The notes under the pieces are model-generated. The model saw nothing but the letters and a program-made list of their open reading frames with translations, did not search any database and was not told the origin of the DNA. From positions 1 through 36,256 of the forward strand of contig JAEOSZ010000073.1 in assembly GCA_016840095.1 (NCBI GenBank): a stretch of 36,256 nucleotides of DNA, written 5' to 3'. Positions 11,508 to 16,971 of this stretch are shown piece by piece. The position numbers and the translations under genes are program-made. The stretch comes from Candidatus Heimdallarchaeota archaeon (GTDB lineage Archaea; Asgardarchaeota; Heimdallarchaeia; Heimdallarchaeales; Heimdallarchaeaceae). Positions within the stretch are counted from its first letter, which is position 1, and the number at the start of each line of letters is the position of its first letter.

Positions 11508-13286
11508 TTGAAGAGAGCTGGAGTTTTAATCATTGTTTCATTATTATTACTGAGTTGTTCTGTAAGTTTAGTACAGAGTGACGAACCACAATATGAAAAA
11601 TTATTTGGTTTTTATATAAGAAGCTTAACAGAAAATTCAGAAAAGATACAACTAGGATTATTAGCTGAAGAGAGATATCCACAAATTGGCATTGAGTGTA
11701 TATATGTCCCTCCTGATAATTGGGATCCTTGGCCTGATCCTTGGATTTGGATTGATTTTGACTATATTCCAACACATAACGAAGGAGGGTATGATGCTCT
11801 TCTTATCAGACATAAAAGTGGTTTGGAATGGGATCCAACTGGCATGTTTGAGACATCTGCTTTAGTTCCCTTTGGTGATAATTTCTATCAATATACTAAT
11901 CCAATCTATGATGATTTATTGATTCAATATTTAACAGCTATAAATCAAACTCTTCAGAATCAATATGCACAGGAGATGCAAGCTATTATCTATGATGATT
12001 TACCCACTATTGTTTTAACTTATCCTAAAACTCTTTTTGGATTTAAACAAGAGATTACAGGAGTAGATAATCAATTAATACTATCATCATTTGCTCGAAC
12101 TGAGTATTGGGATGATCCAGAGGATCATATTCTAAGCTATGGATTTCCTGACACTTTGGTAAATGAGAATATATACAAAGATGATTTTGGAAGGAAAGAT
12201 TTGTGGATGCAAGCAGTATATGGTTCTTTATTTAAAAGAGACCAAGATAGTCATGCTTGGTTACCTTTTCTTGCTTTGGATTATGAAATTAGTTCCGATT
12301 TAAAAAACTACACAATCAATTTGGATCCTAATGCTAAATTCAGCGATGGTTCTCCAGTCCTTGCTGAAGATGTTGAATACTCTGTTAGATTGCATATGAC
12401 TCCTGATGTTGGTTCATCTAGCTATAGTTATTTAAATACTTGGCTTGCAAGTAATTCATCTGTAGAAGTAATAAATGATCACACAATAAATTTCAATCTT
12501 ACAGATGGTAATGCTTTTGCTAAAGCGACTTTATCCTTTGGTATAATTGATAAGAGTTCAGTTGAACCATTAATAGGAACTCATGGTTATTCAATATTTG
12601 ATGAACATCCCTTAACTGGTAATGTTGGAGATGCATTAGTTAAATCGTTCGGTCCTTTTAAACTGAATTCTATTAACCTTGCACAAGGAACTGTTAATTT
12701 AACTCCAAATCCTTATTGGAATAACCTTACTTCCTCTGGAGGGATACAGCCTTTGTTAGATGAGCTTAACTTAACCCAAATCCAAGGTAGAAGTAATGCA
12801 ATCTCAGAACTTTTAGCAGGAGCGATTGATATTGCTGATTCGAACTATGATTTCTCTCTTGAGGAACTTATAGGAATCGGTATAGAAGGTAGAACTGCAG
12901 ATAGTTTTGAGTATTATGAATTTGCACTAAATATGCGTCACCCAATTTTTGGAACAGGAGAATTAACACCATTAGCAACCGCAGAAGCTGCAAAAAATGT
13001 AAGAAAAGCTTTTAGTCATATTATTCCAAGAGACTTAATTGTAAACAATATATTTAACGGATTGGCTCATCAAGGAATTACTATTGCCCCACCTGGATGT
13101 GTTGGATTCAACACCCAGTTAGAGCCCTATGAATATAATGTAACTCTAGCAATAGAATATTTGGAAAAGGCTGGTTTTGAATTAATTGAAATTACTCCAA
13201 CAACTACGAAGACTAGTTTTGTAATTTTGGTGGTTATGACAATTGGATTAACTACTTTAGGTTTGGTTCGGGGGAGAAAAAAATGA
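11508..13286 (+). CDS. ABC-type solute-binding protein family 5 (OppA/DppA-like), circularly permuted, C-terminally anchored (copy 1)
   Basis: LALDYEISSDLKNYTINLDPNAKFSDGSPVLAEDVEYS family signature; GPFKL; VRKAFSH; YNVTLAIEYLEKAG; signal peptide; Thr-rich linker, TM helix and RGRKK. TTG start. Confidence 0.88.
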   Translation: MKRAGVLIIVSLLLLSCSVSLVQSDEPQYEKLFGFYIRSLTENSEKIQLGLLAEERYPQIGIECIYVPPDNWDPWPDPWIWIDFDYIPTHNEGGYDALLIRHKSGLEWDPTGMFETSALVPFGDNFYQYTNPIYDDLLIQYLTAINQTLQNQYAQEMQAIIYDDLPTIVLTYPKTLFGFKQEITGVDNQLILSSFARTEYWDDPEDHILSYGFPDTLVNENIYKDDFGRKDLWMQAVYGSLFKRDQDSHAWLPFLALDYEISSDLKNYTINLDPNAKFSDGSPVLAEDVEYSVRLHMTPDVGSSSYSYLNTWLASNSSVEVINDHTINFNLTDGNAFAKATLSFGIIDKSSVEPLIGTHGYSIFDEHPLTGNVGDALVKSFGPFKLNSINLAQGTVNLTPNPYWNNLTSSGGIQPLLDELNLTQIQGRSNAISELLAGAIDIADSNYDFSLEELIGIGIEGRTADSFEYYEFALNMRHPIFGTGELTPLATAEAAKNVRKAFSHIIPRDLIVNNIFNGLAHQGITIAPPGCVGFNTQLEPYEYNVTLAIEYLEKAGFELIEITPTTTKTSFVILVVMTIGLTTLGLVRGRKK

Positions 13287-15141: not shown

Positions 15142-16971
15142 TTGAAGAGAAAGAAATTGTTAACTGGAATAGTTCTATTAGTCTTAATACTACCTCTACT
15201 ATCAAATTTAACCATATCTAATGAAGGAGAGGATGAAGTAAATATTGTATTTACAATTAGTTTTCTTTCACCTAATACTTTTCCTTCTAGATGTGGTCAT
15301 TGGGGTTTATTAATGGAAAATCAATTGCCAAAAATAGGCATAGGTATAGATTTCCATGAATCTACTGGCTGGGCCAGTATTGCTTCCCGAACATGGTCAT
15401 ATCCCTATATAGATTATGATTATATCCCGACATATGATGAGGGTGGATTTGACATATTCTTTAACAAATTCAGCTGGGATTTTGAACCAAATATAGAGGG
15501 GATGTTTGACTGTGCAGGAACTTCTAGTCCAATAGTTGGGGGGAGGAATTTCTATCAATATGTTAATCCGGAATATGACAATAAGCTAAATCAATATTTA
15601 TATGAAATTAATCAAGAACAAAAAACAGAGTATTGCCAAGAGCTACAAAGCATCATATTTGAGGATTTACCAGCTATTAGCGTTTTGTTTGGAAAAGTGT
15701 TATATGGCAAAAGAAACTCAGTTACAGATATTGACTGGGATTTACTCTATGATTTCTCTCATCGATCAGAGCTTTGGAAGGATACTAATGACCAAATACT
15801 GAAATATGCTATCCCATGTGAGTTAGAGACTCCTAATATCTTTCTACTCAAAAAGTATGATATTTATTATGGAACACATACTAAAGATGCTCATTGGATG
15901 AGAGCAGTGTATGGCAAGCTGTTCCGAAGAGAACAAACTTCTCACTTTTGGCAACCAGAAATAGCATCAAATTATTCTATAAGCTCAGATTTTAGAAATT
16001 ATACAGTATCAATAGATCCCAATGCTAAATTTTCAGATGGAAATCCTGTACTAGCTGAGGACATTAAATATTCTTATGAACTTTTTATGACACCTAGTGT
16101 ATACTCTCCTCAATATAGTAATCTTTTATCATGGTTTTCAAATAATCAATCAATTGAAATAATTGACTCCCATACAATAAATTTCAACTTCTCACGTTAC
16201 TGTTACAAACCTTTTGAAGTACTTTCAAAAGGTATTATAGATAGAAGCGAGGTAGAACCTTTAATTTCAGCTCATGGCCATTCAATTTTCACTGAGCAAC
16301 CATTAACAGCTATTGTAACAGACAGTCTGGTTAAATCCTGTGGACCCTTCAAACTTGAATCATATGCATATTGGAACAATGATTCAGTAAAAATGGTTCC
16401 TAATACCTATTGGAACAATCTAACTGCATCAGAAGGAGAACAACCAAATTTAGAAGAGTATTATCAGGTATTTATAGCAGGAAAAGATTATGCAATAGCA
16501 GCACTTGAGAACAATGAAGTAGATATCATAGACTATTCATATTATTCAAGTCCAGGAGATTACTTAAACAATCTTTATATCCAATATTTTCTAGCTAAAA
16601 ATGGTTACCTAGCTGATATGTCACTAAATATGAGACATCCTCATTTAGGATCAGGAGAACTGACACCAGTAGGTACTCCAGAAGCAGCAAAACTCGTGAG
16701 GAAAGCGATAAGTCATGCTATTCCAAGAGATGTAATTGCAGAACAGATCTTCGATGGGAGTGCAAATCCAGGAACTTCATTCATAAGTGATAGATGTATA
16801 GGGTATAATGATTCTCTTCAACCTTCTGAATATAATTTAGATCTTGCAAGAACGCATATGGAATTAGCAGGATTTGATTTAGGAATAAAAACTACAGAAC
16901 CGAGTTTTACTCTATTACTTACAATGGCTATAGGTTTAACAATTATAAGCATTAGAAAAAGAATAAAATAA
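15142..16971 (+). CDS. ABC-type solute-binding protein family 5, circularly permuted (copy 3)
   Basis: IDPNAKFSDGNPVLAEDIKYS; YNLDLARTHMELAG; C-terminal EPSF, TM helix and RKRIK. TTG start with its own TATA-like motif near 15103-15110. Confidence 0.9.
   Translation: MKRKKLLTGIVLLVLILPLLSNLTISNEGEDEVNIVFTISFLSPNTFPSRCGHWGLLMENQLPKIGIGIDFHESTGWASIASRTWSYPYIDYDYIPTYDEGGFDIFFNKFSWDFEPNIEGMFDCAGTSSPIVGGRNFYQYVNPEYDNKLNQYLYEINQEQKTEYCQELQSIIFEDLPAISVLFGKVLYGKRNSVTDIDWDLLYDFSHRSELWKDTNDQILKYAIPCELETPNIFLLKKYDIYYGTHTKDAHWMRAVYGKLFRREQTSHFWQPEIASNYSISSDFRNYTVSIDPNAKFSDGNPVLAEDIKYSYELFMTPSVYSPQYSNLLSWFSNNQSIEIIDSHTINFNFSRYCYKPFEVLSKGIIDRSEVEPLISAHGHSIFTEQPLTAIVTDSLVKSCGPFKLESYAYWNNDSVKMVPNTYWNNLTASEGEQPNLEEYYQVFIAGKDYAIAALENNEVDIIDYSYYSSPGDYLNNLYIQYFLAKNGYLADMSLNMRHPHLGSGELTPVGTPEAAKLVRKAISHAIPRDVIAEQIFDGSANPGTSFISDRCIGYNDSLQPSEYNLDLARTHMELAGFDLGIKTTEPSFTLLLTMAIGLTIISIRKRIK

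Follow-up and report, generated by a model that had tools for sequence, protein, structure and literature searches.

Do the three tandem genes at positions 11508 to 16971 of contig JAEOSZ010000073.1, a 36,256-nucleotide stretch of a Candidatus Heimdallarchaeota genome (hereafter the window), encode intact solute-binding proteins (SBPs) with a circularly permuted chain, as proposed in an initial annotation made from the sequence alone, or does their unusual segment order have another explanation? The genes lie on the forward strand (gene 1, P0001, 11508-13286, 592 aa, TTG start; gene 2, P0002, 13283-15082, 599 aa, ATG start; gene 3, P0003, 15142-16971, 609 aa, TTG start), and the ATG of gene 2 overlaps the stop of gene 1. 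The three copies are old paralogues sharing 39-57% pairwise identity, and divergence is somewhat greater in their N-terminal segment than elsewhere. All three display the same layout, hereafter type 1: a signal peptide, the canonical C-terminal third (segment B), a linker of 6-7 residues, the canonical N-terminal two-thirds (segment A), a threonine-rich stalk and a transmembrane (TM) anchor. We consider it very likely that these are intact, surface-exposed SBPs of family 5 (cluster C, the OppA/DppA/NikA class) that have been circularly permuted and probably serve an Opp translocator in trans.

Membership in family 5 is evident from the Pfam profile PF00496, which all three proteins match with 151-170 bits at a cut-off of 32.4 bits. 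In each protein the match is confined to aa ~253-570, and in the profile to positions 3-290 of 368. The initial annotation had predicted two matches in swapped order, and these were seen with Pfam and NCBIfam profiles, with phmmer against the PDB and with BLASTP of canonical relatives. The NCBIfam profiles GsiB and SapA place aa ~110-192 at positions ~416-498 of 512 and aa ~232-563 at positions ~57-382, and phmmer aligned residues 239-559 of P0002 with B. subtilis OppA 49-356, and residues 90-190 with OppA 410-509. Searching 1.84 billion cluster representatives exhaustively with HMMER returned 8,394 relatives, including 216 at E < 1e-30. Among the best 149 relatives, BLASTP identified 102 that are collinear with the window proteins end to end and 29 in canonical order, each of the latter giving two strong, swapped high-scoring segment pairs; for the canonical-order P0180, query 32-199 aligned with 394-567 (E 8e-33) and query 210-563 with 29-381 (E 5e-47). 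Re-ordering P0002 at the linker (residues 207-566 followed by 30-206) gave, as had been anticipated, one end-to-end alignment with every canonical relative, residues 4-530 of the re-ordered chain now matching P0180 29-567 at E 3.7e-91. A single collinear alignment in the canonical N-to-C order of segments was obtained solely after this operation. Judged by these comparisons, the swapped order is far beyond chance.

Structural comparison divides the protein at the same place. The AlphaFold2 model of P0002, the copy used for structure modelling, was built with 79 homologues and has a mean predicted local distance difference test score (pLDDT) of 93.5 and a predicted template modelling score (pTM) of 0.87, with segment B above 90 in context. 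Its top Foldseek matches, and all 50 entries per VIA-align table, are cluster C proteins. The Foldseek alignments span merely ~250-430 columns because a single-order superposition covers just model residues ~207-564, which VIA-align places on residues ~1-345 of cluster C structures. On E. coli DppA (1DPE), model residues 211-563 superpose with residues 1-342 (Z 22.1, root-mean-square deviation 2.3 Å over 321 residues). Folded in isolation with 63 homologous segments (pLDDT 76), aa 30-206 yielded a fragment whose residues 1-177 match 1DPE 339-505 (Z 9.5, 5.8 Å over 157 residues) and which also matches 1UQW 320-487 (Z 10.4, 4.9 Å over 161 residues). Model and fragment alignments together account for both pieces of the complete bilobate cluster C fold. 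Since segment A matches DppA 1-342 and segment B matches 339-505, the pieces tile DppA exactly, with a break near residue ~340. Two sequential alignments thus bear out the structural equivalence to DppA that had been proposed, as well as the fusion of the native termini and the opening of new ones at this point. The break is the loop following the 'YDxxxAxxLLxEAG' helix, which by the published domain boundaries of DppA is part of domain III (lobe 2). Because the cut falls in the loop after the 'EAG' helix, it is lobe 2 (domain III) that carries the C-terminus of the chain and, with it, the anchor. No solved chain collinear with the whole P0002 model was found among those compared by phmmer against the PDB, Foldseek and VIA-align. 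The three-domain, two-lobe fold is kept, and connectivity and tether point alone are altered. The mature chain starts at the β-strand that normally comes after the lobe 2 'EAG' helix, passes through the canonical C-terminus, the 6-7-residue linker and the canonical N-terminus, and ends at the 'EAG' helix, which is tied to the membrane by a threonine-rich stalk of ~11 residues and one TM helix.

All motifs quoted in the initial annotation are present in the three copies. KFSDG is located at aa 277, 281 and 296 of genes 1 to 3, and Y-N-x-x-L-A-x4-E-x-A-G at aa 543, 547 and 564, immediately preceding the stalk and the TM helix. The linkers begin at nt 12108 (WDDPEDH, gene 1; ~12105 in the initial annotation), 13895 (WDDPEDH, gene 2) and 15775 (WKDTNDQ, gene 3), the latter two as given before. 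Gene 2 opens with a predicted Sec-type signal peptide that would be cleaved (13283-13363, + strand, aa 1-27), composed of a basic N-region, a hydrophobic core and an acidic mature start, and modelled as a helix at aa 6-24 with low pLDDT. Segment B (13370-13894, +, aa 30-204; DppA ~339-505), the fusion linker W-D-D-P-E-D-H (13895-13915, +, aa 205-211) and segment A (13916-14962, +, aa 212-560; DppA 1-342) follow. Segment A terminates in the YNLTLAKEYMEKAG helix, and the final stretch (14963-15082, +) encodes the threonine-rich stalk of ~11 aa, a TM helix at aa ~571-590 (a C-terminal helix at 573-598 in the model) and a basic tail. The corresponding parts of gene 1, in coordinates of the protein and of a profile hidden Markov model (HMM), are the signal peptide (aa 1-24), segment B (aa ~27-200, HMM 399-566), the linker (aa 201-207, nt 12108-12128, +), segment A (aa ~208-556, HMM 17-394) and the stalk with TM anchor (aa 557-592). 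In gene 3, HMM positions 390-564 come first and 29-389 second; the linker occupies aa 212-218 (nt 15775-15795, +), and segment A ends at aa 577.

The junctions are well defined across the family. The gene 2 linker bridges the conserved E-x-W at the end of canonical chains and IIKCAIP, the canonical first β-strand, which reads IIKYAIP in the window's clade. Linkers differ by clade: the window's clade has a DDPEDH-like and the Bathyarchaeota-type clade a KLNPSTTQT-like sequence, and a third clade has a longer linker. Type-1 chains start ~8 residues ahead of the strand 'F-[TS]-I-x-L-L' and finish at 'AG[YF]'. The distance from 'AG[YF]' to the TM helix has a median of ~11 residues (interquartile range 10-14, n=189), compared with ~29 residues from the last conserved Trp to the TM helix in canonical-order relatives (interquartile range 17-36, up to >100, n=25), both values being approximate and motif-anchored. 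Given where type-1 chains end and how short their stalk is, the anchor has therefore been relocated to lobe 2 and is short, in agreement with the claim that the membrane tether hangs from domain III. A changed docking geometry, put forward in the initial annotation as well, would be a possible consequence.

How widespread is this arrangement? We classified 400 collected proteins with an HMM built from canonical-order relatives. The window's order, type 1, accounts for 330 (HMM cut near ~390, spread over ~340-450, with 316 at 380-420), and a second order, type 2, for eight (HMM cut at ~190); 32 of the 400 are canonical and without a cut, and for 30 partial or unclear sequences no cut was assigned. 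Named type-1 members carry Heimdallarchaeota or Heimdallarchaeaceae labels, including both closed Ca. Heimdallarchaeum genomes, and further comprise one Thorarchaeota-labelled and one 'Promethearchaeati' metagenome-assembled genome (MAG); the members of a second large type-1 clade are labelled Bathyarchaeota or Bathyarchaeia. The permuted topology is a large archaeal family and is not restricted to one lineage. The initial annotation had suggested a lineage-specific receptor family; the family stands, but its confinement to a single lineage does not. The full-length loci collected from Heimdall MAGs and complete genomes number 79, and other Heimdall genomes repeatedly have the genes in tandem, as two or three copies. 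Of the 15 family-5 genes in the window's genome, 14 break off at profile position ~273-292 and are thus non-collinear, and for five of these 14 the absent profile part was recovered upstream within the same open reading frame (ORF). The one canonical family-5 gene of this genome lies on contig C35. Every family-5 gene of the closed Ca. H. endolithica genome is truncated against the profile in the same way. Three further genes, L097 (G049:C53), L106 (G140:C2) and L114 (G103:C6), are permuted near the same site and belong to a different, more Pfam-typical family-5 subfamily.

The permuted proteins share their fold and three structural domains with canonical cluster C (PF00496) SBPs such as E. 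coli DppA (1DPE, 1DPP, 8Z1Z) and OppA (1OLA, 3TCF), B. subtilis OppA/AppA (8ARE, 1XOC), GsiB/YliB (1UQW) and NikZ (4OET). They differ in that the equivalent of residues ~340-505 comes first and that of 1-340 last, the native termini are joined by the short linker, new termini lie after the lobe 2 'EAG' helix, and the membrane anchor is attached to the new C-terminus. The closest canonical-order archaeal relatives (canon31; P0174, P0180, P0182, P0186, P0191 and others) are 30-37% identical to the window proteins over both segments; P0275, a 90%-identity cluster-mate of P0191, is named Heimdallarchaeota. Canon31 and window proteins alike carry a Sec-type signal peptide, a C-terminal stalk, a TM anchor and a basic tail, whereas canon31 retains the canonical order and has the longer stalk (median ~29 vs ~11 residues). 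SBPs of the di/oligopeptide class in Sulfolobus have a Sec signal peptide, a C-terminal Ser/Thr-rich stalk and a TM anchor. The window proteins follow this mode of surface attachment: a hydrophobic signal sequence stands at the N-terminus of each, and a threonine-rich stretch, a single TM helix and a basic R/K tail close the chain, the two hydrophobic segments lying at aa 1-27 and ~570-590. The Sulfolobus-type stalk, however, leaves the canonical C-terminus, while that of the window proteins leaves a helix normally internal to lobe 2.

The permuted order is a natural, conserved topological variant of a textbook SBP class, for which the only precedent among the literature found comes from cluster B. 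MglB-2 of Treponema pallidum (Tp0684), assigned to 'Type Ic / Cluster Bc', is a natural circular permutation that retains ligand binding, and its homologues are probably tethered proteins according to its authors (PMC4990184). The permutation of this sugar-binding cluster B protein displaces three N-lobe strands and requires a fourth hinge crossover (PMC4990184). In contrast, the window proteins belong to cluster C and are cut inside lobe 2, and their number of lobe crossovers should be unchanged, judging from the domain boundaries of DppA. They do not fall into Type Ic / Cluster Bc, as all structure matches are to cluster C and the cut lies in lobe 2. No published description of a permuted family-5 or cluster C SBP was found in full-text searches of the literature readable without a subscription.

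Which transporter these receptors serve can be approached through gene neighbourhoods. In the Bathyarchaeota-type clade, OppB-OppC-OppD-OppF lie directly beside the permuted gene in 60 of 80 metagenome loci, transcribed divergently from ~300 nt upstream; the loci without OppBCDF are mostly short contigs. The SBP ORF is type 1 in 77 of the 80, the other three being cut by contig ends. Going by this gene order, the permuted topology clearly appears to serve as an importer receptor in this clade, and OppBCDF-type translocators are the partners of canonical cluster C proteins as well. The translocators of the Bathyarchaeota-type clade are closest to SBP-less Heimdall operons (OppB, 46.5% identity to L092 vs 35% to the canonical-SBP operon; OppD, 55% and 51% vs 42%), and the canonical-SBP operon was never the best match. 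The window's genome contains an SBP-less OppB-OppC-x-OppD-OppF operon on contig C143 and a classical SBP-OppBCDF operon on contig C35. Ca. H. endolithica has one SBP-less OppBCDF operon and one OppBC pair, and no canonical family-5 SBP was found in its closed genome. Both of its Opp-type permease loci are flanked by a gene for an Arf-family small GTPase (L092:2245-3183 and L093:3141-4115, both on the minus strand); at L092, OppB comprises 573 aa with an N-terminal extension of ~240 residues, and OppC 410 aa.

The most economical reading is that the orphan Heimdall permuted SBPs feed SBP-less Opp translocators in trans, with many receptors per pump. The window SBPs would most likely bind a peptide-like solute and pass it to an Opp-type ATP-binding cassette (ABC) translocator, for which the operon on contig C143 is a candidate, several SBPs possibly sharing it. 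Several observations weigh against this reading. The 36-kb window contains no ABC permease or ATPase gene, and the 79 Heimdall loci, which add up to 1.0 Mb, likewise lack an Opp-type permease at a distance of up to 8 kb, so the link to Opp is indirect for the Heimdall clade. Identity to any characterised SBP is ~20%, and the nearest characterised proteins bind peptides, glutathione, nickel chelates or opines. Finally, a LolD/FtsE/MacB-type ABC ATPase is encoded just upstream of the type-1 SBP in ~16 Heimdall loci.

The Heimdall-clade copies might instead have left ABC import and become stand-alone receptors involved in sensing, adhesion or scavenging, or partners of the LolD/MacB-type ATPases. 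Both the orphan state of the genes and the ATPase with its small membrane proteins upstream of some of them would agree with such a role, and SBPs that feed signalling proteins are known (PMC8050422). We nevertheless regard a departure from import as unlikely: the identical topology is linked in cis to OppBCDF in most sister-clade loci, Heimdall genomes keep intact Opp translocators without another family-5 SBP to serve them, and the LolD-type module does not occur in the window and, where present, is set apart from the SBP by a gap of 163 nt. This module, seen at L049:5209-7793 in Ca. H. endolithica and repeated in this arrangement at ~16 of the loci L013-L091 (one orthologue group), encodes on the SBP strand a ~5-TM protein (329 aa), the ATPase (306 aa) and a 3-4-TM protein (169 aa), whose start is coupled to the ATPase stop and which is followed by the gap before the SBP.

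An origin of the swapped order as a remnant or artefact, through the decay of a tandem fusion, an assembly error or an incorrect gene call, would leave the N-terminal third non-functional or make the genes pseudogenes. Tandem arrays and fused doublets do exist, so partial fusions could arise. Yet the three ORFs of the window are intact, and none lacks a signal peptide or an anchor; full-length collinear homologues number in the hundreds, reach down to ~27% identity and stem from independent assemblies, two closed genomes among them; invariant residues are present in both segments across homologues; and the model forms a single compact fold. An artefact is therefore very improbable. A reading of the first ~200 residues as an additional domain of unrelated origin ahead of a C-terminally truncated SBP, as the single partial PF00496 match might suggest, can practically be dismissed, since this segment matches the family-5 C-terminal part by sequence (E down to 8e-33) and the fragment fold matches residues ~320-505 of many cluster C structures with Z ~10. 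Neither a collinear alignment to canonical SBPs nor an unrelated N-terminal domain, the two outcomes named in the initial annotation as contrary to a permutation, was thus obtained.

Returning to permuted, intact SBPs, how could the order have changed? Two proteins of 2167 and 1522 aa, L126 (G142:C163) and L127 (G110:C9), are fused canonical-canonical modules of the form SP-[A-B]-[A-B]-...-TM, where SP denotes the signal peptide. The Thorarchaeota-labelled P0228 (1695 aa) has the form SP-B-[A-B]-A and then continues with nine TSP3 repeats and a TM helix. This equals two type-1 modules enclosing a canonical-order unit, with calcium-binding repeats of the bacterial TSP3 type acting as the stalk. 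Each of these fused doublets has one signal peptide and one C-terminal anchor, and they would represent the intermediates expected if permutation proceeds by duplication, fusion and terminal loss. Since such two-module fusions still exist in both orders, the most likely route would lead from tandem duplication through in-frame fusion to loss of the outer ends. In several canon31 proteins, the A2-to-B junction, which is precisely the site of the two ends of type-1 chains, contains a DxDGDG-type element. We considered this element as proof of the ancestral order, an argument that fails as it recurs as a TSP3-type stalk repeat in P0228.

Type 2 comprises eight sequences in seven 90%-identity clusters from several sources (P0217, P0255, P0276-P0281), with a signal peptide, canonical residues ~200-570, a linker, canonical residues ~25-185, a threonine-rich stalk and a TM segment. 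This layout (SP-A2-B-linker-A1-TM) is nested in the tree inside the Bathyarchaeota-type type-1 clade, and the A2-to-B junction resembles a type-1 C-terminus with a stub of the threonine stalk fused to a type-1 N-terminus. Type 2 is probably a second rotation of type 1. An independent origin from canonical proteins was also considered and dropped, the relatives of the type-2 query at ~55% coverage being classified as type 1 by the HMM.

The direction of change is harder to read from the trees. A tree rooted on a single distant outgroup was unreliable (support 0.43). When 30 canonical outgroups were included, the close canonical-order clade fell within the type-1 radiation in the FastTree as well as the IQ-TREE phylogeny, which would imply a reversion or several origins. 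A single clade of all permuted forms was not rejected by an approximately unbiased test (log-likelihood difference 15.3, p 0.24). The three permuted genes of the other family-5 subfamily (L097, L106, L114) fall among the canonical outgroups, suggesting that the same loop was opened more than once. It is conceivable, although on balance doubtful, that the family-5 ring has been re-cut repeatedly via fused intermediates, so that chain order switches back and forth, with canon31 as a revertant of permuted ancestors, in keeping with its place in the maximum-likelihood trees, type 2 re-rotated from type 1 and the lobe 2 tether of ~11 residues as the selected feature. If so, the short lobe 2 tether would pre-orient the receptor at the membrane, and many tethered receptors could share one Opp translocator.

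The surroundings of the array comprise a PadR regulator, a ferredoxin-type protein, a TPR protein, and MFS and other transporters. The PadR-family regulator contains a Vir_act_alpha_C domain and is encoded on the same strand, ~540 nt upstream of the SBP genes (10392-10970, +); between them lies an ORF of 142 aa (10977-11405, -) for which no annotation was obtained. Two NosD / right-handed β-helix proteins are encoded at 6955-7944 (-) and 34698-35942 (-). The window also harbours three MFS transporters, two Na+/H+ exchangers and one CitMHS transporter, and is therefore unusually rich in membrane transport genes.

Cluster C SBPs are among the best-studied transporter components, and the solved structures and published descriptions that we found all share one chain order. 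The proteins described here indicate that the cluster C fold withstands a chain break in the loop behind the 'EAG' helix, as seen in hundreds of sequences from two archaeal phyla, together with a second rotation and fused intermediates, and they provide a natural example of circular permutation through duplication and fusion. Because Pfam detects just a truncated domain, permuted genes resemble fragments or stay under-annotated in the genomes of Asgard archaea and Bathyarchaeia, where they are the main or only family-5 receptors. They may also offer a test system for the effect of tether position and length on the docking of membrane-anchored receptors to an ABC translocator.

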